Positions 1,482 through 62,699 of a stretch of DNA of 62,699 nucleotides are shown here, in pieces. The notes beneath the pieces are model-generated. The model had not been told where the DNA came from. It made no database searches and worked only from the letters and a program-made list of their open reading frames with translations. Both the position numbers and the translations under genes were made by a program. The stretch comes from an uncultured Candidatus Saccharibacteria bacterium (lineage in GTDB: Bacteria; Patescibacteriota; Minisyncoccia; Phycocordibacterales; DATGWK01): positions 1 to 62,699 of the forward strand of contig CAYVZB010000004.1 in assembly GCA_964456405.1 (NCBI GenBank). Reading direction: 5' to 3'. Each line of letters begins with the position of its first letter. The stretch's first letter is position 1.

Positions 1482-2510
1482 ATGAATAATTTTAAAATCC
1501 GAGAAATCGGAAATGGTGAAAATTTTGATCCTAGTATTTTTTGCGAAAATGTCCCGTTTACACAAGCAAGTTTTTATGGAGATTGGCAAAAAAATTTAGG
1601 CAGAACAGTAAAAAGATTCTTAATATCTAGCGATAAAGAAATTGTCGCTTATTTTCAAATAATTAAATATCCTCTTTTGCTAGGCAAAAGTTATTTCTAT
1701 ATACCTTATGGACCGGTTACAAAAGATTCTTCTGATGATTTTTTTTCCTACCTTAAACAAGAACTAAAAAGAATTTCTAAAATCGAAAATATTGTCTTTG
1801 TTCGTCTTGATTTCACACCAAAAATTTCAAATGATACTTTATTAAAATTTTTTACTAAAGCACCATTTTATACCTATCATTCGGCATATTTTCAACCTCG
1901 GGCTGAGTGGTTTCTTGGTTTGAAAAAAACAGAAAACGAAATACTCATGGAAATGCACGAAAAAACTCGTTACTCAATAAGATTAGCCGATAAAAAAGAA
2001 ATAGTTGCAGAAATTATTACCGACGATTTTGAAAAATATTTTGAGGTTTTTTATGAACTGATGACTGGAACAGCTGAACGAAATGGATTTAAACTCCACA
2101 AAAAGGATTATTACAAAAATATATTTCAAAATCTTTCTAGAACAAACTCTTATTTATCAATAGCAAAGTATGGTGAAAAGATTTTAGCAATTGATATGAT
2201 TATCGTTTTTGGAAAAATTGCAAACTATGTTTTTGGTGGTTCAAGTAATGAAGAAAGAAATCGTATGCCAACTTATTCGGCTCAGTGGAAAGCAATTTGT
2301 TATGCTAAACAACTTAACTGTGATTATTATAATTTTGGTGGTATAGCCACAGGAAATAAGATATATAAAGGTTGGGATGGTCTAACAATTTTTAAAAAGA
2401 AATTTGGTGGTGAAGAAATAACACATTCTGATTTTTTTGATTTAGTAACAAATCGAATCATATATTATATTTATAATTTTAGAAAATATCTAAAAAAAAT
2501 TATTCCATAA
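1482..2510 (+). CDS. FemAB-family peptidoglycan cross-bridge aminoacyltransferase (FemX/Lif/Zif-like)
   Basis: 342 aa. Family-like blocks: FTQASFYGDWQK, YIPYGPV, HEKTRYSIRLADKK, ERNGFKLHKKDYY, YVFGGSSNE..MPTYSAQW, GLTIFKKKFGG. About 30% GC by spot count. Confidence 0.8.
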   Translation: MNNFKIREIGNGENFDPSIFCENVPFTQASFYGDWQKNLGRTVKRFLISSDKEIVAYFQIIKYPLLLGKSYFYIPYGPVTKDSSDDFFSYLKQELKRISKIENIVFVRLDFTPKISNDTLLKFFTKAPFYTYHSAYFQPRAEWFLGLKKTENEILMEMHEKTRYSIRLADKKEIVAEIITDDFEKYFEVFYELMTGTAERNGFKLHKKDYYKNIFQNLSRTNSYLSIAKYGEKILAIDMIIVFGKIANYVFGGSSNEERNRMPTYSAQWKAICYAKQLNCDYYNFGGIATGNKIYKGWDGLTIFKKKFGGEEITHSDFFDLVTNRIIYYIYNFRKYLKKIIP

Positions 2511-4647: not shown

Positions 4648-5847
4648 CTACTTTAGTTTCGATCTTCGGAGAAACGCAGGAACTGCAGACCATTCATCGT
4701 CATCCATATCATCTGGTTGTGCAGCGATTGGTTTCTTTTCGGTTTGTGAGTCCTCGGTTTTTACTGGAGTAGAAGTAGTGCTTGTGGACGGGATAGTGTT
4801 GTAAATTTTACCCTTTTTTTCTGCGTCATCGGCTTTCTGCTCAAGAGATTTGTGAGTTGGTGACTCCTGGAAGATAGATTTTCGAACGGCATTTTCTGGG
4901 AAACCGGTCGCAATCACTGTGATGCGAACTTCACCTTTCTTCATGCCATCGTTTCGAATCGTACCGAAGATGATTTTTGCACCAGGATCGACTGATTCAG
5001 TGATGATCTTTGCAGCGTCCTGAATTTCAAACATTGTAAGGTCGTCACCACCAGCAATGGAGAACAGAACGCCTTTGGCACCTGCAATAGAAAGCTCAAG
5101 AAGAGGGGAATTGATTGCGATTTTTGCTGCTTCTTCCGCGCGCTTTTCGCCAGTAGCACTACCGATACCCATGAGTGCTGGGCCAGCATTTTCCATAATT
5201 GCTTTGACGTCTGCGAAGTCGATGTTGATAAGACCCGGAGTTGTAATAAGGTCAGAGATTGCTTCAACGGCTTGTCGCAACACTTCATCACACATTGCAA
5301 AGGCGCTTTTTGCAGTAGTTTCTTTGCTAATGATGCTTAAAAGACGGTCGTTAGGAATAACGATCATTGCATCAACAACACTTCGGAGTTCTTCGATTGC
5401 TTGTTCAGCAATGCGCATACGCTGTAACCCTTCAAAAAAGAACGGTTTTGTAATAACAGCAACAGTAAGCGCACCGAGCTCTTTTGAGATTTGAGCGATT
5501 CGAGGAGCCGCACCTGAACCAGTACCACCGCCTGCACCACAAGCAATGAATACCATATCTGCACCAGTTATAGATTCTCGGACTTCTTCTTGTGCTTCGT
5601 CTACAGCACGTCTGCCGAGCTCTGGATTCATACCCGTACCGAGACCGCGAGTCAGATTTTTACCAATGTGAATTTTCTTTTTAGCCAGAGAGTTGTGAAG
5701 ATCCTGTGCGTCAGTGTTGATCGCAATAAATTCTACACCCCGAACTTTCGAGTTGATCATGTGATTGATCGCATTTCTACCAGAACCTCCAACACCGAGG
5801 ACTTTGATTCGTGCGAATGTTTCAACTTCAGGCTTAATTTGGGGCAT
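4648..5847 (-). CDS. ftsZ: Cell division GTPase FtsZ
   Basis: 399 aa. GVGGSGRNAINHM, tubulin signature GGGTGSGAAP, acidic/disordered C-terminal tail. Confidence 0.97.
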   Translation of the reverse strand: MPQIKPEVETFARIKVLGVGGSGRNAINHMINSKVRGVEFIAINTDAQDLHNSLAKKKIHIGKNLTRGLGTGMNPELGRRAVDEAQEEVRESITGADMVFIACGAGGGTGSGAAPRIAQISKELGALTVAVITKPFFFEGLQRMRIAEQAIEELRSVVDAMIVIPNDRLLSIISKETTAKSAFAMCDEVLRQAVEAISDLITTPGLINIDFADVKAIMENAGPALMGIGSATGEKRAEEAAKIAINSPLLELSIAGAKGVLFSIAGGDDLTMFEIQDAAKIITESVDPGAKIIFGTIRNDGMKKGEVRITVIATGFPENAVRKSIFQESPTHKSLEQKADDAEKKGKIYNTIPSTSTTSTPVKTEDSQTEKKPIAAQPDDMDDDEWSAVPAFLRRSKLK

Positions 5848-6045
5848 GTTGTGATTATTAAATAAAATTAAATTACTTTTTTAGACAAAATAGAAACACA
5901 ATGCGAGTTCTCTCGCTCTCATGTCCCTAAAATGTCGAATAACGTTGCCTTATGATAGCACAGTGAAAAGTCTCTTGAAAACACTTGACCAGTTCGATCA
6001 ATCGTTTCAATATCAAGGTCCTGCGAATACAGGTGTTTTTGATAT

Positions 6046-7227
6046 TTAGGGTAAAAATTGCTTAATAAAAGAAATAGTTTTGCCCTTGATTCGTTTTGCC
6101 AAGTTTGAAACCTTTAGTGACCCCGTATCGTCGGTTGAAAGGCCCCAGAAACAAAGACCGTATGCAACAGACCATGAGCTATTTTTAAAAGGGCTTTTTG
6201 TTGGATCACCAGCATGCAATGCGGCGACTTTTGCTGGTAGTAAAAGGGAGCTTTTGGCATTTTCTTCAATACCACTGATGCCGGCGCCACCACCAGTAAT
6301 GATGATTCCGGCCGGCAAAAGACCAGCGTGGCCAACTTTCTTTAGATGTGCACCGATCAGATCAAACATGTCTTCAAGTCGGGCATCAATAACATCATCA
6401 AGCTTTTTTCTTGGGATTGTAAACGTTGTGATTCCACCCATTTTGAGATGTTCTGCTTCGTCGAGAGCGATTTTGAATCCAAGGGCGAGGTCGTTGGTAA
6501 TATTGCTTGAACCAACCGGAAACACTGCAACAGATTGTGGTTTGTTTTCATCAAAGACAGCAAGGGTAAGTGTTTCCGCACCGATATTGGCAAGAGCGCA
6601 TCCGGCGATTTTTTGACTTTTGGAAAGAGTAACCAAGCTTGCTGCCATTGGGGCGGCCATAACATCGACGACTTCTACACCAGCTTCTTCAACAACTTCT
6701 ATAAGGTTATGTAAATGATGTTCGAGACAAGTAATAAAAAGCATTTTGCATTCGAGCTTGTTGCCACGAAGGCCGATTGGAGTTGGGCCTAGTACTGGTT
6801 TGTCGTCGAGTTTGTATTGAAGGGGGATTGGATGAATGATTTTTCGGTTTACGATCATCGAGGAGGGGATTTCTTTTTCGCATGTTTCGTGCAGTTTGTT
6901 GAGATCAACGTCGTCGATTTCTGAATCACCACGAGAGATCATGATCGAGGCCGTTGAAATAATGCTTTCAAGACCAATACCACCTACAGATAGGAAGGCG
7001 CGTTTGATCTTTATGCCACTGGTTTTTTCCGCCTGTGCAAGAGCTTGGAGCAGGCTTTGGGTTGTGTCTGCAGGAGATGTAATGTAACCATGGCGAAGTC
7101 CTTTTGACTCTGCGTAGCCCATACCCAAGACACGAGGAAATTCCTTTCCAGAGTCTGGACTTTCTGCCACAACAACTTTGATCTGGTATGTACCAATATC
7201 TATACCGACCGCTATTTTCTTAGCCAT
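6046..7227 (-). CDS. ftsA: Cell division protein FtsA (actin-like ATPase)
   Basis: 393 aa. GIDIGTYQIKVVV phosphate-1 motif, IIITGGGAGISG adenosine motif, immediately upstream of ftsZ. Confidence 0.9.
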   Translation of the reverse strand: MAKKIAVGIDIGTYQIKVVVAESPDSGKEFPRVLGMGYAESKGLRHGYITSPADTTQSLLQALAQAEKTSGIKIKRAFLSVGGIGLESIISTASIMISRGDSEIDDVDLNKLHETCEKEIPSSMIVNRKIIHPIPLQYKLDDKPVLGPTPIGLRGNKLECKMLFITCLEHHLHNLIEVVEEAGVEVVDVMAAPMAASLVTLSKSQKIAGCALANIGAETLTLAVFDENKPQSVAVFPVGSSNITNDLALGFKIALDEAEHLKMGGITTFTIPRKKLDDVIDARLEDMFDLIGAHLKKVGHAGLLPAGIIITGGGAGISGIEENAKSSLLLPAKVAALHAGDPTKSPFKNSSWSVAYGLCFWGLSTDDTGSLKVSNLAKRIKGKTISFIKQFLP

Positions 7228-8369: not shown

Positions 8370-10253
8370 TTACATACCAAGGATAACCGGGATAACAATC
8401 GGTTTTTTGTTGGTTTTCTGGAACAAAAATCGGCTTACGGCATCTGCCACATTTGATTTCACGAACTCGAAGTTAATTGGGTTCATGCCTGTAGTAGAGG
8501 TTTCAACGGTTTTTTTGATTATCAGTCGAGCCTGCTGAAGCAGTTCCTGAGATTCACGAAGATATACGAAACCTCGGGAAATAATATCTGGAGATTTGCG
8601 GAGTTTGCCAGTTCGAACATTGATTGTGGCAATGATGACGAACATACCGTCCTCGGCGAGCATTTTTCGGTCTCGGATAACAACCTCTTGCATATCACCG
8701 ATGGTAAAGCCTTCAACCATCATGTCGTCCGACGGTGCTTTTTCCTTCAAGACAGAAATTTTGTCTGCTGTTGGTGGAATTTCAATCACCGAGCCGTTGT
8801 CTGGTACAACAATGTTTTCTTTTGGTGTGCCGAGTTGATGCGCAAGCTCAGCGTGCATTTTTACTCTGTAATGTTGGCCGTGAACCGGTATGAAGAATTT
8901 GTATGGAATCTGCTTGTGAATCCATTCGAGCTCTCCTCGTTTTCCGTGACCAGAAGCGTGAACGTCTGAGTCAAGGTAGGTAATGATCTTTGGATCGTGT
9001 CGGTAGAGATTGTCTTTAAGTTTATCAACGGCTTTTTCGTTTCCGGGAATAACAGAAGAAGAGAAAATAATAGTATCGTTTTTATTGAGCTTCACGTGTT
9101 TGTGAGTCTTGTTTGCCATTCTCATCAGAGCAGCAAATTCTTCACCCTGGGCGCCGGTTGAAATGATAAAAATCTTATTTGGCGGATATTTTTCTATGTC
9201 TTCAATCGGTACGATGTGGTCTGTTTCAACAAGGTTCAAATGTTTGATGATATCAACATTGGTTTTCATGCTTCGGCCCTCAACAATGATTTTCTTGTTG
9301 TACTTTTTTGCCATCTTGATGAATTCGATGATTCGCTCAACCTGTGATGCGAATGTTGCGATCAAGAGGCGGCCGGGCACTTCTCCAACGATTTTATCAA
9401 TCGTGTTCATCACGTGTTGTTCAGACATTGAGAATCCCGGTCGGTCGATACCAGTTGAATCCATGGCCAAAAGAAGGATGTTTCGATCCTTAAACATTTT
9501 GTATTGCTCGACTTCTTTCGGGTTCGGTATACCGTCTTCATTGTCGACTCTGACGTCACCGGTGTTTACGATATCGCCAAATGGGGTTTCGATAATGACA
9601 CCAGTTGAGTCGGGAATAGAATGGGTAAGACCAAAGAACCGAACTTTTAAGTTTGCCGTAAGGGGGATTGCACCGTCGTCTGCACCGACAATTTTGAGGT
9701 TAAGGGGTGGAAGGTGAGGAAATTCTTCGTGTCGTTTCTTGATGAGAAGTGCACCAAATTCTCGAGTGTAAATTGGCGGATTACCAAGTCGTTCGATGAG
9801 ATACGGAATACCTCCAATGTGATCTAAATGACCGTGGGTTATTACCAGAGCACGGATTTTACCTTTTCGTTCCTCGAGATATTTAATGTTTGGCAAAATA
9901 TAGTCGACACCGGGAGTTTCGTCATCGCTAAATTGAACACCAGCATCGATAACAATAATGTCGTCTTTGTATTCGACTAACATCATGTTTTTACCAATTT
10001 CCTCGACACCGCCAAGTGGAATAATCCGGATGTTTTCTCCGGCCGGTGGAATCTTTACATGCTCACCCTTTCTGTCAGGTCGTTCACTACCCATGGCAGC
10101 AGAATTTTGATGCGTAAAGGGTGTGCGGCGATCAGTACGCTGGTGATGACCTCCTGGTCTGCCTCGGCCTCCCATAGGACGACTTCTGTGTGGTCGTGGG
10201 CCTTGGTTGGAGGCTGGGTTTGCTGGTCTTACTTCTGGTTTTATTGGTTGCAT
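8370..10253 (-). CDS. rnj: Ribonuclease J (metallo-beta-lactamase/beta-CASP) with an R/G/P-rich N-terminal extension
   Basis: 627 aa. HGHLDHIGG motif and beta-CASP region. The first ~75 aa are low-complexity and basic. Confidence 0.9.
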   Translation of the reverse strand: MQPIKPEVRPANPASNQGPRPHRSRPMGGRGRPGGHHQRTDRRTPFTHQNSAAMGSERPDRKGEHVKIPPAGENIRIIPLGGVEEIGKNMMLVEYKDDIIVIDAGVQFSDDETPGVDYILPNIKYLEERKGKIRALVITHGHLDHIGGIPYLIERLGNPPIYTREFGALLIKKRHEEFPHLPPLNLKIVGADDGAIPLTANLKVRFFGLTHSIPDSTGVIIETPFGDIVNTGDVRVDNEDGIPNPKEVEQYKMFKDRNILLLAMDSTGIDRPGFSMSEQHVMNTIDKIVGEVPGRLLIATFASQVERIIEFIKMAKKYNKKIIVEGRSMKTNVDIIKHLNLVETDHIVPIEDIEKYPPNKIFIISTGAQGEEFAALMRMANKTHKHVKLNKNDTIIFSSSVIPGNEKAVDKLKDNLYRHDPKIITYLDSDVHASGHGKRGELEWIHKQIPYKFFIPVHGQHYRVKMHAELAHQLGTPKENIVVPDNGSVIEIPPTADKISVLKEKAPSDDMMVEGFTIGDMQEVVIRDRKMLAEDGMFVIIATINVRTGKLRKSPDIISRGFVYLRESQELLQQARLIIKKTVETSTTGMNPINFEFVKSNVADAVSRFLFQKTNKKPIVIPVILGM

Positions 10254-15642: not shown

Positions 15643-17313
<1,671 letters not shown>

Positions 17314-23087: not shown

Positions 23088-25823
23088 ATGAATATTTCAA
23101 TCACAAAACGAGATGGTACGAAAGAAAAGTTCAATGCTGACAAAATAAATCGATCTATCGAGCGCGCATGTATCGGTCTCTCTGATCCAATTAGTTTAGT
23201 TACACAAATTGCGCTTGAAACCCAGCTGACTTTGTATGATGGAATCACTACGGATGAAATGGATCAAGCAACAATCAGTGCCGCGGTTCAAAATATTAAA
23301 AATGATATTGAGTTTGATAAAATCGCGACACGTTTGCTTCTTAAAACAATATATCGTCGAGTGATTGGTGAATATGGTGACGATCCAGAAACATTAAAAC
23401 GCAGACACAGGGAAGAATTCATCAATTACGTAAACAGGGGTGTTGAAAGTGGCCTTCTCGACAAGAGAATGCTTGAAAAATATGACCTCGTGAAGCTTTC
23501 TGAGGTTTTGGATTTGCGCCGAGATGAACTTTTTCAGTACGCTGGTCTTTCTGGTCTTCTGAACCGCTATGCACTCAAGGACAAACAACAACAACCAAGT
23601 GAAACCCCGCAGTATTTCTTTATGCGCATTGCAATGGGTCTTTCGTACAACGAAGCCGATCCCACCGGAATGGCAAAAAAATTCTACGACAAAATGTCTC
23701 GTTTCGAGTATATCGCTGGTGGTTCTACAAATTTAGGTGCGGGTACAAGTCGTCCAGCGCTTTCAAACTGTTTTCTTTTGGAAATCCATGATGACATGGC
23801 CCACATTGCAAAATCTGTATCGGACGTCCTTCTTCTTTCAAAAGATTCTGGTGGTATTGGTGCTTCTATCACTAAACTAAGAGCTTCTGGTTCACCGTTG
23901 GCGGCAAGCAACACCACTTCTTCTGGTCCAACACCCTTTGCCAAGATTATTGATACTGCAATTCGTGCAGTTCAGCGTGGGGGCAAGAAAAAGGGCGCGC
24001 TTTGTTTCTACATGGAAAACTGGCACATTGATTTTGAAGATTTCCTAAACTGGAAGCACAACGCTGGCGATGATTATCTCCGAATGCGTACCGCAAATAC
24101 CGCAGCGTTTCTTTCTGATGAATTTATGACTCGGGTTCGAGATGGAAAGGATTGGTACATGTTTGATCCAAAAGAGACCCCAGATCTCAATGAGTTGTAC
24201 GGCAAAGCATTTAGTAAACGATATGCCGAATATATTGAAATGGCGGAAGCAAAAAAGCTTCGAGTATTTAAAAAAGTACCCGCACGAGAGCAATTCCGAC
24301 AAATGCTTGTGTCTTTGCAAACCACCTCTCATCCATGGCTTACCTGGAAAGACCCGATCAATACGCGAGCACTCAACAACAACACCGGTACGATTCATAT
24401 GTCGAACCTTTGCACCGAAATTTGTTTGCCCCAGGACAAAGAGCATATTGCTGTATGTAATTTGGCTTCAATTAATCTCGCTGCTCATATCACAAATAGG
24501 GAAATTAACTGGTCACGACTCGAAGAAACCGTTCGGCTCGCAGTGCGCCAGCTTGATAACTTGATCGACATCAACAAACTGGCTATTCCGGAAGCCGCTC
24601 GGTCAGATCAGGAAAACCGCGCAATTGGTCTTGGCGTTATGGGTTTTTCAGACACCCTTGAACAATTAGGTATGGCATATGACAGTGAACATGCCTGGAA
24701 CTTTGCTGACCGAATTTTTGAATTTATTTCGTATATGGCGATCGACGAAAGTGCAAATCTTGGTCTTGAACGTGGTGTGTACAAAAATTTCGTCGGATCC
24801 GGTTGGTCAAAGGGTATGGTACCGATCGATACTGTAAAAGTTCTTGAAAATGATCGTGGTACTACAATTACTGTTTCAAAAGAAAGTAAGCATAAGGGTC
24901 TTAATTGGGATCTTTTGCGAGAAAAAGTTCGTAAGGGCATGCGAAATGCAACGTTGATGGCAGTGGCACCAAATGCAAACATTGGTTTGGTTGCCGCAAC
25001 GACTCCTGGTATCGATCCGCGGTTTGCCCAGGTTTTTTCTCGAAACAAAATGTCAGGAAAGTATCTCGACCTCAATCACAACTTGGTAAAGGATCTCAAG
25101 AACATGGGGATTTGGGAGAATGTCAGGGAAGAAATTATTGAACGACAAGGAGACATTGCAGATATCGAAGGTATTCCTCAGCACATCAAGGATATTTACA
25201 AAACTTCATTTACAACAAATCCTTACGCATTTATCGAAGTTGCGGCTCGAGCACAAAAATGGATTGATCAGGCCCTTTCTCGAAACATGTATCTTGAAAC
25301 TCGAGACATCGACGAAACAATGAAGATCTATATGACTGCGTGGGAGAAAGGTGTTAAAACAACATATTATCTTCACATGAAGCCTCGTCATACTGCAGAA
25401 CAGAGTACAGTTGCGGTTAACAAGGCAAAGAAGATTGGAAAAGTAGGATTCGGTGCCATTGCATTTATGCCTAAAAAAGTAGAATCTTCTTCGGAGGCAG
25501 TAGAAGCAAAGGGTTTTGCCGTGCCACTCCAAACGACTATTACCGCGCTTCCAGAGATCGAAACGGTTGCTTCAGAGGTTGCGCCAATAGTTTCCCCAGT
25601 GCAGCAGGTTGATGTGGAGCCAGCATATGTCGCATCGAAACCAGCAATCTCTTGGAATATCCCAAAGTCGTCTCCGGCGCAGTCAGTTTCTACGGTAATG
25701 AGTGCTCCTGTAGAAGCGACACCGACACAAAATTCTCTCGATTCTGTGCCGTCAAAGCCAGCGCTTCGAGTGCATGCGCCGTCAGATCCGCAAGATGATT
25801 TGATTTGTGATAGTTGTCAGTAG
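23088..25823 (+). CDS. nrdA: Ribonucleoside-diphosphate reductase alpha subunit (class Ia, ATP-cone) with a long low-complexity C-terminal tether
   Basis: 911 aa. N-terminal ATP-cone (ITKRDGTKEKFNADKI), active-site NLCTEI, C-terminal CDSCQ redox pair. Confidence 0.95.
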   Translation: MNISITKRDGTKEKFNADKINRSIERACIGLSDPISLVTQIALETQLTLYDGITTDEMDQATISAAVQNIKNDIEFDKIATRLLLKTIYRRVIGEYGDDPETLKRRHREEFINYVNRGVESGLLDKRMLEKYDLVKLSEVLDLRRDELFQYAGLSGLLNRYALKDKQQQPSETPQYFFMRIAMGLSYNEADPTGMAKKFYDKMSRFEYIAGGSTNLGAGTSRPALSNCFLLEIHDDMAHIAKSVSDVLLLSKDSGGIGASITKLRASGSPLAASNTTSSGPTPFAKIIDTAIRAVQRGGKKKGALCFYMENWHIDFEDFLNWKHNAGDDYLRMRTANTAAFLSDEFMTRVRDGKDWYMFDPKETPDLNELYGKAFSKRYAEYIEMAEAKKLRVFKKVPAREQFRQMLVSLQTTSHPWLTWKDPINTRALNNNTGTIHMSNLCTEICLPQDKEHIAVCNLASINLAAHITNREINWSRLEETVRLAVRQLDNLIDINKLAIPEAARSDQENRAIGLGVMGFSDTLEQLGMAYDSEHAWNFADRIFEFISYMAIDESANLGLERGVYKNFVGSGWSKGMVPIDTVKVLENDRGTTITVSKESKHKGLNWDLLREKVRKGMRNATLMAVAPNANIGLVAATTPGIDPRFAQVFSRNKMSGKYLDLNHNLVKDLKNMGIWENVREEIIERQGDIADIEGIPQHIKDIYKTSFTTNPYAFIEVAARAQKWIDQALSRNMYLETRDIDETMKIYMTAWEKGVKTTYYLHMKPRHTAEQSTVAVNKAKKIGKVGFGAIAFMPKKVESSSEAVEAKGFAVPLQTTITALPEIETVASEVAPIVSPVQQVDVEPAYVASKPAISWNIPKSSPAQSVSTVMSAPVEATPTQNSLDSVPSKPALRVHAPSDPQDDLICDSCQ

Positions 25824-25953: not shown

Positions 25954-26982
25954 ATGTTACTTGGAAAAGCCTCACCAGAAGATATGAATTTGCACCCACT
26001 TCGATACAAGTGGGCATACGATCTTTACAACACCGCAGTGCGAAACACCTGGTTTCCTCATGAAATTGCTCTCAAAGAGGATCTTGAGGATTTTAATGGT
26101 ATGACCGACGATGAACGTCATGCAGTTAAGTTTCTTATGGCCTTTTTCAATCCGGCTGAACTCATTGTGAATCGTTCGTTGGCGCTTGGTGTGTATCCAT
26201 ACCTCAAGTCTCCTGAATGTCATCTCTACTTGGCAAAGCAAATGTGGGAAGAGGCAAATCACTGTGTTGCGTTTGAGTATGTACTTGAAACATTTCCGTT
26301 TGACCGCGAGAGAATTTTCAGTCTTCATCTCGAACGACCGTCAATGGTTGCTAAAGAGACCTATATCAACAAGTATTTGAAACGAATGACTGAAGTGACT
26401 CTCGATATCACCACCATTGAAGGGAAAAAAGATTTTATTCGGAATCTTGTTGCAACAAATATTGTGATGGAGGGTGTCTGGTTTTATTCAGGATTTATGG
26501 TCGCTCTTTCATTCCGACAGAGGAATAAGCTTCGAAACTTTGGTTCAATGATCAACTGGGTGCTCCGAGACGAAAGTCTTCATTTGCAGTTCGGTATTAA
26601 CCTCATTCACAATATTTTGGAAGAGAACCAAGAGCTTTTGACCGAAGAATTTGCGAACGAAATCAGAAATATTGTTATCGAGGGTGTGAATCTCGAAACT
26701 GATTACAACAAAGACTTGTTCCCGAATGGAATTCTCGGTTTGAATGCAGACTACGTCAATCAATACGTGCAGTATGTCGCTGATCGACGACTCGAAGAGC
26801 TTGGTATGCCAAAACACTATGAAGTAACAAATCCTGCAAAGTGGATGTCTGCAGCCACTGATGTGTTTGAGCTTGTAAACTTTTTCGAAAGCCAGAACAC
26901 GAGCTATGAAGTCGATACTCGAGCTCATACAAACAAAAAAACCGAAATGACAGCTGAGCCAGCAAAAGTCGAGGGGGAATAA
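25954..26982 (+). CDS. nrdB: Ribonucleoside-diphosphate reductase beta subunit
   Basis: 342 aa. Di-iron ligand blocks (EEANHCVAFEY, VMEGVWFYSGF, RDESLH). Confidence 0.93.
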   Translation: MLLGKASPEDMNLHPLRYKWAYDLYNTAVRNTWFPHEIALKEDLEDFNGMTDDERHAVKFLMAFFNPAELIVNRSLALGVYPYLKSPECHLYLAKQMWEEANHCVAFEYVLETFPFDRERIFSLHLERPSMVAKETYINKYLKRMTEVTLDITTIEGKKDFIRNLVATNIVMEGVWFYSGFMVALSFRQRNKLRNFGSMINWVLRDESLHLQFGINLIHNILEENQELLTEEFANEIRNIVIEGVNLETDYNKDLFPNGILGLNADYVNQYVQYVADRRLEELGMPKHYEVTNPAKWMSAATDVFELVNFFESQNTSYEVDTRAHTNKKTEMTAEPAKVEGE

Positions 26983-30246: not shown

Positions 30247-31281
30247 ATGAAAACTATCAAAGTGGCAGTAAACGGTGCAGGACGAATTGGCAGAGCTTTC
30301 GTAAAACTTGCTCAAGAAAGAAAAGAGATCGAGATTGTTGCGGTTAATGACCTCGGAAGTCTTGAAAGCATCGTCTATCTTTTTAAATACGACACCGTAT
30401 ATGGGCCAACTCAGTTTCCAGTCGAAGCAGGTAAAGACGGTAAAACTATTTCTATTAATGGAAAGTCAGTAGCATTCGTTTCTGAAAAGGATCCAACAAA
30501 GCTTCCATGGGGAGCAATGAACGTCGATATTGTTGTTGAATCAACCGGTCTCTTTACTGCGTATGACAAAGCTCGTGCGCATCTCACTGCTGGTGCAAAA
30601 CGTGTCGTCGTAACTGCCCCTGTAAAGGATGAACCACCTGCGGACATCAAGGGTGCTACCGTGCTTATGGGTATCAACGATGATTTTTTGACCGATGTTC
30701 AAATTAGCTCAAACGCTTCGTGTACAACAAACGCTGGATCACCCGTTATGGCAATTCTTCATGAGGCGATTGGAATTGAAAAAGCGATGCTTAACACGGT
30801 CCACGGATACACCGCCAGCCAGGCTCTCGTTGATGGTCCAAGTAAAAAGGATCTTCGTGAGGGACGAGCTGCAGCACAAAATATTGTTCCGTCATCAACC
30901 GGTGCGGCGATTGCTGTTACGCAAGCACTCCCGGAACTTAAGGGAAAATTTGATGGTATTTCTATCCGTGTTCCAGTGCCAGTAGGTTCCATTGCCGACA
31001 TTACATTCGTCTCAAAGCGAAACACTTCCGTAGAAGAAGTTAACGATATTCTCACGAAAGCCGCAAAGGAAAAACGTTGGCAAAAAGTGTTTTCTGTTAC
31101 AGATGAGCCGTTAGTTTCTTCGGATATTATTGGCAATCCTCATGCATCAATTGTTGATCTTGCAATGACTCGCGTTGTCGATGGAAACTTGGTAAAGGTT
31201 TTAGCTTGGTACGACAATGAAATGGGGTATACACATGCGCTCATGGAGCATGTGGTGAAGTCGGGGAGTTCAATTAAATAG
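30247..31281 (+). CDS. gap: Type I glyceraldehyde-3-phosphate dehydrogenase
   Basis: 344 aa. NGAGRIGR, active-site SNASCTTN, WYDNEMGY. Confidence 0.95.
   Translation: MKTIKVAVNGAGRIGRAFVKLAQERKEIEIVAVNDLGSLESIVYLFKYDTVYGPTQFPVEAGKDGKTISINGKSVAFVSEKDPTKLPWGAMNVDIVVESTGLFTAYDKARAHLTAGAKRVVVTAPVKDEPPADIKGATVLMGINDDFLTDVQISSNASCTTNAGSPVMAILHEAIGIEKAMLNTVHGYTASQALVDGPSKKDLREGRAAAQNIVPSSTGAAIAVTQALPELKGKFDGISIRVPVPVGSIADITFVSKRNTSVEEVNDILTKAAKEKRWQKVFSVTDEPLVSSDIIGNPHASIVDLAMTRVVDGNLVKVLAWYDNEMGYTHALMEHVVKSGSSIK
31204..31281 (+). repeat. Direct repeat copy 1 (functional gap 3' end)
   Basis: 67/78 nt identical to 31500-31577. Confidence 0.9.
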
Positions 31282-44236: not shown

Positions 44237-44247
44237 CTATTAATCTT

Positions 44248-44270
44248 GATCCCGGGTAAAGCCCGGGATC
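44248..44270 (+). terminator. Hairpin after rpmE
   Basis: GATCCCGGG-TAAAG-CCCGGGATC followed by TTGTT. Confidence 0.55.
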
Positions 44271-44287
44271 TTGTTATACTTGCCAAC

Positions 44288-45277
44288 ATGGAACTCGAAA
44301 GTTTCAAACAAAACTCAAAAACTGCATTTTTAGCCGACTTGTACTCTAAGTACGAAAAGGAAGAAGCAGAGATTCAGAAAATGGCCGAAAACGACCCGTC
44401 CTTTTCTGTACTTGCAAAAGATGAACTTGAAAATTTGAGGGCACAGAAAGAGTCACTCATGACTCAGATGAAAGATATTGTGGCTAAGGATAATGCCGAA
44501 GAAGAATTTCCTAATGAAATAATTCTTGAGGTTCGGGCAGGTGCAGGAGGCGACGAAGCCGCTCTTTTTGCTGAAAAGTTGGCACTCATGTACCAGCGTT
44601 ATGCTCAACGCCGCGGATGGGGGTCTCGACCGCTTGAAGAGTCAAAGAATTCCCTCGGTGGCTATAAGGAAGCGACATTTGAAATTAAGGGAAAGGGAGT
44701 ATATAAAGATCTGCGATTTGAATCCGGTGTACATCGTATTCAGCGTGTACCTGCAACAGAAAAATCTGGCCGAGTTCACACTTCTACTGCATCAGTTGCA
44801 ATACTTCCGATCAGAAAGAAATCAAAGATCACGATTAATCCTGCCGATATTGAGATGGAATTTTCTCGTTCGGGCGGTGCGGGTGGCCAAAACGTCAACA
44901 AGGTTGAAACCGCTGTTCGGCTTATTCATAAACCAACTGGCATTGATGCTAAGTCAACATCTGAACGAAGTCAGGCGGCCAACCGCATGATGGCCATGGA
45001 AGTTTTGCAGGCCAAGCTCGACATGGCACATGAAGCGGAGCAAGCAAAAAAGCATGCAGCAGAGAGAAGGGAACTTGTTGGTACTGCTGATCGTTCAGAA
45101 AAAGTTCGAACCTATAATATTTTGCAAGATCGTATTACAGACCACAGGCTCAAGGAGTCATGGCACAATATTGAAACTATTTTTGCCGGTGACATGGATT
45201 CAATCATCGAATCTTTCCAAGAAAGACTTGAAAAGGGTGGTGCGATCGAGGCCGGAAGTGTGGAGGATGACGAGTAA
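44288..45277 (+). CDS. prfA: Peptide chain release factor 1
   Basis: Start MELESFKQ (the track ORF begins inside the rpmE hairpin). PAT tripeptide (RVPATE) and GGQ ([12 protein letters not shown]). Confidence 0.9.
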
Positions 45278-59677: not shown

Positions 59678-60496
59678 ATGCCAAAGTCGTTTTCATACAG
59701 GTTTCGTGTAATCTATTTCTGGCTTTTTGTCCTGATCTTTCTTATTGGTTTCCCAATTCTTGTTTTTTATTCAGCTGGATATACCTGGGATGATAGATTT
59801 GGACTTTCAGTACGTGGTGGTATCTATGTGTTTACGCCAGAACCAGGAACATCGGTATTTATCGGTAACGAGCTCAGAAACGTATCTGGTTTTTTTAATA
59901 AAGAAATTCTTGTTGCAGATTTGAAGCCCGATGAATATTTGGTTCTTGCTACAAATGATACGTTCTGGCCATGGGCAAAGGTTGTTACCGTGAAAAAGGG
60001 TGAGGTTGAAGCTTTGGCGCCGCTTATGGTTCCAAAGGTTATTGATACTGAGGCTGTGCTTCGAACAACTCAACTGCACGCTACTTTGGCTAATCTTTTT
60101 GCCACAAAGACTATTCCAGCCGCTATCAAGAGCACAACTACGCCAGGGGCTTTACTCAAAAAGAATGTAAAAATCTGGTATGTTGGCACAAAACTGTTTG
60201 CAAAATGGGAGGGGAGAGCGGAGGCTGCTCCATCATATTTTTGTGATACGGAGTCTTGTGACAAGCCGATTCAGGTCTTCGAGGCTTATGTGCCGATTAG
60301 GTCTATCGACTTCTACCCATATCGAGACGATGCTATTATTCTAGCGCTTGATAATGGAGTGTATGTTATTGAGATAGATCGCCGACAAACCCAAAATTTC
60401 TATCCGTTATACCGGGGTAATGTGCCAGATTTTAGAGTGTATCGGAATCAGGTATATATCAAAGATAATGATTATATTGCGTTATTAAATGTATAA
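59678..60496 (+). CDS. Hypothetical membrane-anchored beta-rich (PEGA-like) protein
   Basis: 272 aa. N-terminal TM helix. GTSVFIGNE...LKPDEYLVLA resembles PEGA. Confidence 0.45.
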   Translation: MPKSFSYRFRVIYFWLFVLIFLIGFPILVFYSAGYTWDDRFGLSVRGGIYVFTPEPGTSVFIGNELRNVSGFFNKEILVADLKPDEYLVLATNDTFWPWAKVVTVKKGEVEALAPLMVPKVIDTEAVLRTTQLHATLANLFATKTIPAAIKSTTTPGALLKKNVKIWYVGTKLFAKWEGRAEAAPSYFCDTESCDKPIQVFEAYVPIRSIDFYPYRDDAIILALDNGVYVIEIDRRQTQNFYPLYRGNVPDFRVYRNQVYIKDNDYIALLNV

Positions 60497-60499
60497 ACT

Positions 60500-61702
60500 A
60501 TGAGCGAACAACTTTCAGGACTAAAACGAGCAGAGCGTGATGTAAACGCTAAGAGGCCACATGACAGCCTTCTTAAATTCGAGGTTTCAACACCCGAAGC
60601 AATTAAAAAAGCTCTTGAGGTAAAAGATTTGACTCTTGATGATGCCCCAAAGCATGCCATCAATCTTATTGTTAATACCGTTAAGAAAAAACTTGATGGT
60701 GCTGGCTTTGGTGAGATACGAATCATTCGTGGCAATCCAATCGTGACGGTTGAAGACAATTTCGACAAGCTCTTGTTCCCATACGATAACGCTGGTCGTG
60801 CATCTACCTATACTCGATATGTTGATGAAAATCACGTTTTGAGAACACACACCTCTGCTCAGGTTCCCCAGACATTTAAAGAATTTTACAAAGAATTCAA
60901 TGGCGATATTCCTGATACCGTTTTTATTTTTCTTGGCTTGGTATACCGACGTGATGTGATTGATCCGAAACACCTAGACGTCTTTCATCAAATGGATATT
61001 TGGGCGTTGCGAAAGAATGGTGATAGGGGCCCGTTTCGTGATGAAGATTTACTCCGGCTTGTGACGTTGGTGTTTAATTCTGTGCTCCCAGATCAGAAAC
61101 CAATTATTTATAAAGCTGTTCATCCATATACTCACAATGGTATAGAAGTGTATGGAAAATTGGGTAATGCTGAACTTGAAATTCTTGAGGCCGGCTTAAC
61201 ACACACAGAGGTACTTCGTGGTGCCGGCTTTGATCCAGAGTTATATTCTGGCCTCGCATCTGGCTTTGGTCTTGATCGTCTCGTTATGGCCCTTAAAAGT
61301 CTTCCTGATGTTCGCTATTTGCGTTCAGTTGAGCCTCGTATTGCCAAGCAAATGGAGAATACCGAAAAATTCAAGGAAGTTTCAATGATGCCACCGATCT
61401 CTCGTGATATGTCATACACTGTGCCCGGTGACTTTACCGAAGAAGATATTAACGAAGAAATTAAGGATGCGTTTGCTGAGAAAGCCTACTTGGTTGAAAA
61501 TGTGGCAATTCAGTCTCGAACAAAATATGCCGATCTTCCAGAAATTGCCCGGGAAAAGTTGGGAGCTCAACCAGGCCAAGACAACATTCTTGTCCGTATT
61601 ACACTCCGACATCCTGATGTGACTTTAACTAAAAAAGAAGCAAACGAACTCTACGATCAGGCATATCCAAAGTTGCACAAGGGGACTAAGGGATATATTT
61701 AG
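60500..61702 (+). CDS. pheS: Single-chain phenylalanine--tRNA ligase, mitochondrial-type architecture (PheS catalytic core + C-terminal FDX-ACB domain)
   Basis: 400 aa. NFDKLLFPYDN, LRTHTSAQ, motif 2 VYRRDVIDPKHLDVFHQMD, motif 3 SGFGLDRLVMAL, then PPISRDMSYTVP...ILVRITLRHPDVTLTKKE. Confidence 0.85.
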   Translation: MSEQLSGLKRAERDVNAKRPHDSLLKFEVSTPEAIKKALEVKDLTLDDAPKHAINLIVNTVKKKLDGAGFGEIRIIRGNPIVTVEDNFDKLLFPYDNAGRASTYTRYVDENHVLRTHTSAQVPQTFKEFYKEFNGDIPDTVFIFLGLVYRRDVIDPKHLDVFHQMDIWALRKNGDRGPFRDEDLLRLVTLVFNSVLPDQKPIIYKAVHPYTHNGIEVYGKLGNAELEILEAGLTHTEVLRGAGFDPELYSGLASGFGLDRLVMALKSLPDVRYLRSVEPRIAKQMENTEKFKEVSMMPPISRDMSYTVPGDFTEEDINEEIKDAFAEKAYLVENVAIQSRTKYADLPEIAREKLGAQPGQDNILVRITLRHPDVTLTKKEANELYDQAYPKLHKGTKGYI

Positions 61703-62137: not shown

Positions 62138-62699
62138 ATGGCTGAAGACAAAAAGAAAAAAGGAAGTACATACGATGCCTCACAGATTTCTGTTCTCGAA
62201 GGTCTCGAGCCTGTGCGCAAGCGTCCCGGAATGTACATTGGTACAACTGGTCCAGACGGTTTCCATCATTTGGTTACAGAAATCTTCGACAACTCTCGTG
62301 ATGAAGCGATGGGTGGTTTTGCTAATGATATTGAGATCGCTTTTCTTCCAAATAACCGTGTTCGTGTTGTAGACAACGGCCGTGGTATTCCGGTTGATAT
62401 CCATAAACAAACAAAAGTTTCAGCTCTCGAAACAATCATGACCACTCTGCATGCCGGAGGTAAATTTGGCGGTGAGGGTTACAAAGTTTCCGGAGGTCTT
62501 CATGGTGTCGGTGCGTCTGTTGTGAATGCTCTTTCTGTTTTTGTAAAAGTAACAGTTCACAAGGACGGTGGCATATATATGCAGGAGTATAGTCGTGGCA
62601 AGCGAAAGGCGGCAGTAAAGAAAATTGGTTCAACAAAGAATAACGGTACGGTCGTTATGTTTGAGCCCGACGAAGAAATCTTTGGTAAGCAAGCGTTTG
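62138..62699 (+). CDS. gyrB: DNA gyrase subunit B, N-terminal 187 codons (runs off window end)
   Basis: Not in ORF track (no stop). Own translation: [98 protein letters not shown]. Confidence 0.95.

Follow-up and report, generated by a model that had tools for sequence, protein, structure and literature searches.

A Single-Chain PheS-like Ligase Beside gyrB as a Possible Phenylalanyl-tRNA Synthetase of Patescibacteria

The Locus and the Question

Bacterial phenylalanyl-tRNA synthetase (PheRS) is the textbook obligate heterotetrameric synthetase with an editing site, and single-chain PheRS is regarded as a mitochondrial speciality. Whether a bacterium may rely on a one-chain enzyme is the question raised by a contig of an uncultured Candidatus Saccharibacteria bacterium (GenBank CAYVZB010000004.1, assembly GCA_964456405.1), analysed here over 62,699 nucleotides and hereafter called the window. 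At 60500..61702 of its forward strand, the window carries a complete gene for a single-chain PheS-like ligase. An initial annotation made from the sequence had taken the product for a mitochondrial-type PheRS in a reduced-genome bacterium, and the host does belong to the candidate phyla radiation (CPR). The gene is a member of the NCBIfam family SrmL, and its lineage within that family is designated type A. Type A may well be the working single-chain PheRS of the window's lineage; we give this reading about an even chance. It is favoured because of an architecture like that of human mitochondrial PheRS (FARS2), intact catalytic and anticodon-domain motifs, sequence constraint, synteny with gyrB, the lack of co-occurrence with other PheRS genes, the adjacency of tRNA-Phe in one subclade and the precedent of another single-chain lineage, type C, in the same class of bacteria. 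The strongest alternative, plausible if somewhat short of an even chance, is that type A resembles its sister lineage, type B, in being an accessory SrmL ligase: an adenylate-forming, tRNA-binding protein, with the real PheRS (type C or PheST) encoded elsewhere.

Architecture of the Window Protein

The 400-aa open reading frame (ORF) starts with ATG, 3 nt after the stop codon of the upstream gene, which ends at 60496. A protein identical to the window ligase is encoded on ENA metagenomic contigs of 135–150 kb, and the window forms part of such a contig. All peptides quoted in the initial annotation were located in this frame: NFDKLLFPYDN (residues 87–97), LRTHTSAQ (114–121), VYRRDVIDPKHLDVFHQMD (148–166), SGFGLDRLVMAL (254–265), PPISRDMSYTVP (298–309) and ILVRITLRHPDVTLTKKE (363–380).

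The protein consists of three parts. The N-terminal extension of about 45 aa (residues 1–47; 60500..60640, +) is, according to alignments, Pfam and the structural model, distinct from the PheS coiled-coil arm. It is kept across type A and missing from type B in two alignments, and is modelled with short helices at residues 7–18 and 32–39. The absence of a long arm had been claimed before, and the Pfam scan found no Phe_tRNA-synt_N domain (PF02912) in the window protein. Residues 48–284 (60641..61351, +) form a class II (IIc) PheS-type catalytic core, recognised by Pfam PF01409 (tRNA-synt_2d, E = 6.7e-29). The core comprises HTS at 117–119, motif 2 (R150...F162-H-Q164-x-D166), HPYT at 208–211, E230 and motif 3 (G251-L-A253-S-G255...R260). 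Residues 295–394 (61382..61681, +) make up a C-terminal FDX-ACB-like domain of the PheT-B8 type with an anticodon-binding fold, identified by Pfam PF03147, TIGR00472 and structure. This domain carries the RDMSY and LRHPDxTLT motifs and aligns to C-terminal positions 691–790 of TIGR00472. Of the two Pfam matches that the initial annotation had proposed, PF01409 is thus clear, while PF03147 (E = 8.1e-7) reaches 29.8 bits, slightly under its gathering score of 31.1.

Searches against the PDB returned human mitochondrial PheRS as the best match (E about 1e-22), with bacterial PheS behind (E about 1e-17). An AlphaFold2 model built from a 20-sequence family alignment had a predicted local distance difference test score of 81.9 and a predicted template modelling (TM) score of 0.75. 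In Foldseek, the model superposed over its full length on human mitochondrial PheRS (5MGW, 5MGU and 3CMQ; TM 0.68–0.70, about 410 aligned columns), and bacterial PheS chains aligned with the catalytic core alone (TMq of about 0.50). The full-length match supports the FDX-ACB fold of the C-terminal domain. Pfam, the PDB search and the superposition agree on the three-part anatomy and on the block-for-block parallel with FARS2 noted earlier. The window protein contains the PheS core and the FDX-ACB fold only, with no editing module, as had been expected, and is a one-piece PheRS look-alike of mitochondrial architecture.

Mitochondrial PheRS (human FARS2; 3CMQ, 3TUP and 5MGU) is likewise a single chain of about 400 aa with a core, a C-terminal FDX-ACB domain, no arm and no editing domain. 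Type A and FARS2 have in common the motifs NFDxLL, LR(T/A)HTS, VYRRDxID..H...FHQ and, in the anticodon-binding domain, (R/N)D(M/I)S(Y/F). They differ in that type A has HPYT for FPFT, FHQxD for FHQxE, E230 for Gly and GLA(S/L)G for GWAFG. The canonical (alpha-beta)2 enzyme is homologous in motifs 1–3 of its PheS core and, through PheT B8, in the C-terminal domain; in contrast to it, the window protein is without the N-terminal coiled coil and the B3/4 editing domain, and no type A gene has a pheT within 10 kb.

Family Assignment and Distribution

The window protein scores 381.4 bits against NF051887, 'PheS-related mystery ligase SrmL' (cutoff 300), with residues 41–395 covering the profile end to end (1–349 of 349). 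Every protein of type A or B that was tested passes this model, with 361–446 bits. The mitochondrial equivalog TIGR00469 (pheS_mito) was failed with 145.4 bits against a cutoff of 258.35, and the bacterial PheS equivalog TIGR00468 with 97.6 against 237.45, where a real CPR PheS (locus L132) reaches 238.6. The label 'mitochondrial-type' therefore fits the architecture and not the family; it is type C that is truly FARS2-like. Judged by these sequence profiles, the window protein is not an orthologue of either mitochondrial or bacterial PheRS.

NF051887 pools two reciprocally monophyletic lineages, type B, with scores of up to 446 bits and degenerate motifs, and type A, with the motifs kept. The model is typed 'equivalog', yet the two clades differ in the adenine-stacking Phe, the anticodon-domain Asp and genomic context. 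A literature search found no paper on SrmL or on single-chain PheRS in CPR bacteria. Curators know the SrmL family, though it is uncharacterised; nothing in the literature found describes the A/B/C lineages, a separate B2 partner or a gyrB slot common to A and C, all reported below.

Where homologues are named, among the best 120 of thousands of matches, they belong to Patescibacteria, i.e., Nomurabacteria, Zambryskiibacteria, Minisyncoccia and Paceibacterota. Forty-three loci were found among GTDB species representatives, all within Patescibacteria, and a metagenome scan yielded 399 relatives. Several public metagenome-assembled genomes that carry this CPR gene (L012, DATGWK010000105.1; L049, CAZUHV010000001.1) bear implausible organism names (such as 'Candidatus Nanoarchaeia archaeon', 'uncultured Pseudomonadales bacterium' or 'Ignavibacteriaceae'), which suggests wrong taxonomy or mis-binning.

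Phylogeny and the Three Single-Chain Lineages

When 1.84 billion representatives were searched with a profile, 698 matched at E ≤ 1e-30. The best 150 of these 698 form three groups, namely A/B, C and FARS2-like sequences, the last including lancelet mitochondrial PheRS. Neighbour-joining trees were built with 200 bootstraps and two outgroup sequences. Type A was monophyletic in 128/200 replicates, type B in 160/200 and CPR type C in 196/200, and A+B was sister to CPR type C in 122/200 (moderate support). The window protein stands on a long A+B branch that splits type A from FARS2-like sequences, and it is Paceibacteria type C that intermixes with them. Deep relationships are tentative because these are distance trees with just two outgroup sequences. 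Some short FARS2-like representatives were considered as further bacterial members and rejected: the contig that carries P0419 is eukaryotic, and that of P0385 is phage-like.

The flanks of 133 loci (1.6 Mb; loci are given as L numbers) were searched with E. coli PheS, E. coli PheT and the window protein. Type A proteins have about 400 aa, the motifs HPYT, FHQxD and GLAxG and NF051887 scores of 361–381 bits. Type B proteins are shorter (about 370 aa), with HPYT, PHQxD and 388–446 bits; examples are L048:3504-4616 (+), L046:8809-9924 (−), L132:10019-11152 (+) and more than 20 other loci. Near them, either a radical-SAM/SPASM protein or a divergent LysRS-like protein is repeatedly encoded, each in 8/25 loci. 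Type C proteins, of about 380 aa, have FP(Y/F)T, FHQxD and, as in FARS2, GWAFG. They score 245–254 bits on NF051887, under the cutoff, 237–245 bits on TIGR00469, slightly below the cutoff for mitochondrial PheRS, and give a strong PheT-B8 match of 70–82 bits. Type C was found at L112:14252-15394 (−), L128:1590-2732 (−), L144:10001-11215 (+) and L146:10001-11137 (+), among others. Between candidate phyla (Yanofskybacteria, Liptonbacteria and others, among the matches listed), its identity stays at 70% or more, and NCBI names it 'hypothetical protein'.

In two near-complete genomes, a gene for a stand-alone PheT N-terminal B2 (tRNA_bind) protein of 139–142 aa (L144:9561-9980, +; L146:9557-9985, +) lies directly upstream of type C, with gyrB downstream. 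The product matches TIGR00472 positions 41–151 with 114 bits. This arrangement suggests a split minimal PheRS in type C hosts, consisting of a core-B8 fusion and a separate B2 protein. As type C comes near the TIGR00469 cutoff and has a B2 partner, it looks like a pared-down but orthodox PheRS, and many CPR bacteria probably use it as their actual minimal PheRS. It would then provide a precedent for a minimal single-chain PheRS in the same class of bacteria. Types A and C are alike in domain architecture, host class, the genomic slot UvrD...[ ]-gyrB, FHQxD and xPYT. Unlike A, type C has retained the pocket residues of PheRS (F, G, W and F), and it has a strong FDX-ACB match and the upstream B2 gene; it is only 31–35% identical to A.

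Some Paceibacteria possess canonical pheS-pheT (L132, L147 and L149). Their PheT, of about 650–660 aa (L132:17372-19351, −; L147:10001-11962; L149:10001-11953), is without B1/B2; its match to the TIGR00472 profile begins near position 155 and reaches 367 bits against the NCBIfam cutoff of 403, so that Paceibacteria PheT genes may be under-annotated. The presence of pheS-pheT with a PheT lacking B1/B2 in some Paceibacteria is consistent with Mukai et al. 2017 (PMC5370408).

Two divergent single-chain paralogues stand in tandem with A or B, namely 'D' (L106:11139-12281, +) and 'B2' (L133:11252-12379, +; a paralogue label), and score 229 and 299.6 bits on NF051887, at or below the cutoff. Going by such sequences, the SrmL family seems to be still diversifying. 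A 354-aa single-chain protein with a PheS core, FDX-ACB, FPFV and GYAFGLGLER was also found at L151:8001-9065 (+) on a 160 kb Logan contig (SRR32456865), which resembles a large phage or virus genome in its dense co-directional genes, dNMP kinase, dCMP deaminase and PcfJ-like protein.

Conserved Residues and Constraint

Per-site conservation was assessed in 65 type A and 24 type B sequences, with residue roles mapped from Thermus thermophilus PheRS (R204, F216 and R321) via PMC8555319. The motif 2 Arg (R150) and motif 3 Arg (R260) are present in 65/65 type A proteins and the adenine-stacking Phe (F162) in 64/65; type A thus has the catalytic set of a class II aminoacyl-tRNA synthetase (aaRS). 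HTS and Q164 are invariant or nearly so in these sequences, and D303, the Asp of the RDxSY motif in the anticodon domain, is found in all of them. The ATP-binding and anticodon-domain residues kept in A are lost in B, where Pro replaces the adenine-stacking Phe in 21/24 sequences and Val replaces the anticodon-domain Asp in 18/24. This difference speaks against the view that A is an accessory protein of the same kind as B.

In the clade of the window protein, the ratio of nonsynonymous to synonymous substitution rates (dN/dS) is 0.02–0.04. Type A is constrained like the housekeeping proteins encoded at the same loci, with a mean pairwise identity of 66.8% against 73.6% for GyrB and 60.3% for ThrRS, which again argues against an accessory role. 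At least 130 columns are invariant over 20 family sequences with identities down to 53%. The possibility that type A is a decaying or non-functional PheS relic, to which its divergence and its failure at both PheRS equivalog cutoffs might point, is effectively refuted by these selection and conservation data, and the confident full-length predicted fold and hundreds of intact homologues also oppose it.

The alternative of an accessory ligase supposes that a pocket of His208, Glu230, Leu252 and Leu/Ser254 selects something other than Phe, e.g., a polar or substituted aromatic amino acid, for a non-translational or specialised aminoacylation. The FPF(T)/GWAFG signature of a Phe pocket is replaced in the window protein by HPYT and GLASG, with H, Y and L invariant in all 65 type A sequences. 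A polar pocket was considered as proof of a non-Phe substrate, but this argument fails: human cytosolic PheRS-alpha binds Phe with NPYT, VGNSG and IAWGLSLER, i.e., with Asn, Tyr, Asn and Ile at the matching positions (checked against 3L4G). The argument from the pocket that A shares with B is therefore weaker than it looks.

Genomic Context and Co-Occurrence

Immediately upstream of the ligase, the window encodes a membrane protein of 272 aa (59678..60496, +) of unassigned family and with no Pfam match. In eight loci, a member of this family precedes the ligase in the same orientation, with a median spacing of 12 nt. The family is a conserved partner in the window clade, and the two genes are likely to form one transcription unit. 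Downstream lies the 5′ part of gyrB (62138..62698, +, from the tblastn map), cut off by the window end. In L001/L006, the full gyrB follows the ligase and is followed by thrS on the opposite strand.

Two diverged A subclades (L021, L024, L025 and L033, in addition to the window clade) have one gene order in common: a UvrD-like helicase, a stretch of about 2 kb, A, gyrB and, on the opposite strand, thrS. Type C occupies the equivalent slot as UvrD...B2-C-gyrB in L144 and L146, and gyrB is also beside C in L134. The genes that separate UvrD from A show no homology to those that separate it from C, and relaxed tblastn detected no remnants of C or B2 adjoining A. Where A holds the gyrB-adjacent slot, no type C lies within 10 kb. 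An early view that A is merely an extra paralogue and C the real enzyme was downgraded by the UvrD...[ ]-gyrB synteny, and the occupation of the C slot by A likewise tells against an accessory role.

In one subclade (L019, L062, L064/65 and L066), type A is followed after 50–90 bp by an oppositely oriented tRNA-Phe(GAA) gene (L019:11256-11328, L062:5298-5371, L064:2013-2088 and L066:11271-11344, all −), which also speaks for a PheRS rather than an accessory ligase. In L066, this tRNA gene sits between A and B; in the window, no tRNA-Phe was found at the position 3′ of the type A gene.

The initial annotation had made its conclusion conditional on the lack of pheT in the genome. Neither pheS nor pheT was found in the window, where 20 large ORFs were compared with NCBIfam and tblastn was run with E. 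coli PheS and PheT. Across 69 dereplicated A loci (about 1.2 Mb of flanks), type A is never alongside C, pheS or pheT (0/69), as against 3/25 B loci with C or pheST within 10 kb; this, too, is at odds with an accessory A. Canonical pheS-pheT was found within 10 kb of type B in L132, and type C in L112/L134 and L128; type B adjoins type A in L046, L048, L066, L068/69, L072, L074 and L097, with A present in 6–7 of the 25 B loci. Type B is considered accessory because it is found beside C, canonical pheST or A; its coexistence with C and pheST and its frequent adjacency to A lend weight to the same role for A. No A, B or C was found close to the pheT loci L147 and L149. The type C protein of L112 belongs to GCA_964564525.1 (CAZMAY01), outside the 43 type A genomes of GTDB. 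In Supplementary Data 4 of Anantharaman et al. 2016, the table for a reduced 43-gene set has a 'PheRS alpha' column and no 'PheRS beta' column.

Functional Interpretation

The architecture, conserved residues, purifying selection, synteny and phylogeny described above are observed directly; from them we infer the amino acid and tRNA specificity of type A and the lack of another PheRS in the genome. If type A is the working PheRS, it would be an active, monomeric class IIc aaRS. Its PheS-type core would bind ATP via R150, F162 and R260 and hold the alpha-amino and carboxyl groups of the amino acid with H117, S119, Q164 and D166 to form the aminoacyl-adenylate. The fused FDX-ACB domain, with its RDMSY motif, would grip the tRNA-Phe anticodon as in mitochondrial PheRS, and the amino acid would then be moved to A76 with no beta subunit, B2 partner or editing site involved.

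A corresponding history can be proposed. Paceibacteria would first have cut PheST to type C, a core with B8 and a separate B2 beside gyrB. A strongly diverged duplicate of type C would then have given rise to the SrmL clade, in which the ATP and anticodon motifs of B decayed and B took on an accessory role; A would have kept its motifs and, in the window's lineage, would fill the gyrB slot instead of C. The whole scenario, in which Paceibacteria dropped the (alpha-beta)2 PheRS in two steps (type C, then takeover by type A at the same slot), B is a new non-PheRS ligase and type C shares one fusion origin with mitochondrial PheRS, is tentative and in our view possible rather than probable.

Several observations weigh against a PheRS function of type A, and most of them favour the accessory alternative. 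NF051887, the 'mystery ligase', is the sole equivalog that the window protein passes, every PheRS model being missed, and the name chosen by the curators implies that they saw no PheRS role. The FDX-ACB match is weak (29.8 bits, as against 82 bits for type C on the PheT model). In the trees, A is sister to the accessory type B, with the A+B clade recovered in 199–200 of 200 bootstraps, and the A+B branch is long, with mean distances of 1.9–2.0 to C/FARS2 as against about 1.55 from C/FARS2 to canonical PheS. Four invariant pocket changes are common to A and B and occur in none of the C, FARS2-like and PheS sequences sampled: T. thermophilus F258 to H, G to E230, W/F to L252 and F to L/S254. Types A and C are 31–35% identical at loci where gyrB is 52–63% identical, and C sequences remain about 72% identical to each other over the same distance. 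This gap marks a discontinuity, and A is therefore not a drifting orthologue of C.

The genomic setting of A is also partly non-housekeeping. Its commonest neighbour is a pyridoxal-phosphate (PLP)-decarboxylase-like gene with an oxidoreductase (16/69 loci). The gene encodes about 540 aa (L082:5181-6818, +; L048:4698-6314, −; and 14 other A loci), its matches to diaminobutyrate, Tyr and Asp decarboxylases are weak, and it is mostly joined by a protein of about 330 aa of unassigned family and a GFO/IDH/MocA oxidoreductase. The last 22 nt of A in L048 are shared with an ilvE transaminase gene. Such neighbours in amino acid metabolism point to an accessory ligase, and the canonical PheT of some Paceibacteria supplies an example of a PheRS of another kind in related hosts. 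The absence of pheST and C, finally, reaches no further than the window and the type A flanks.

It is improbable that type A is a second, condition-specific PheRS beside another one, such as an inhibitor- or stress-resistant copy or a supplier of Phe-tRNA to Fem-type cell-wall transferases. Such roles are common for duplicated aaRS genes, the catalytic and anticodon-domain motifs of A are intact, tRNA-Phe is adjacent in one subclade, and the window does contain a FemX-like gene at 1482-2510. However, 58 kb separate that gene from the ligase, it is not conserved beside type A, the flanks of the 69 A loci yielded no second PheRS, and nothing specific speaks in favour of this role.

If A (and C) are the sole PheRS of their hosts, free-living-derived bacteria would translate without PheRS proofreading against tyrosine. 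They would also offer a bacterial counterpart to the mitochondrial architecture, and the origin of FARS2 would become testable by phylogeny and biochemistry. Phylogenies and completeness estimates rely on marker sets that contain pheS and pheT (bac120, including TIGR00468 and TIGR00472); lineages with a replaced pheST will therefore look incomplete, and extra PF01409 copies (A and B) could pass for contamination. If A is accessory instead, SrmL would be a ligase derived from an aaRS, widespread and altered in its pocket, and worth characterising in itself.

Other Features of the Window

Ordinary housekeeping genes elsewhere in the window are consistent with a chromosomal CPR segment. They encode GroEL (15673-17313), the alpha and beta subunits of class I ribonucleotide reductase (23088-25823 and 25954-26982, both +), GAPDH (30247-31281) and RF1 (44246-45277). 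FtsZ and FtsA (4648-7227) and RNase J (8370-10253) are encoded on the reverse strand. FemX-type enzymes are aminoacyl-tRNA-dependent peptidoglycan transferases; the FemAB/FemX-family gene of the window (1482-2510, +) lies directly downstream of a LOOT RNA motif (1281-1414, +), which matches Rfam RF03000 with 64.7 bits against a gathering score of 46.4.

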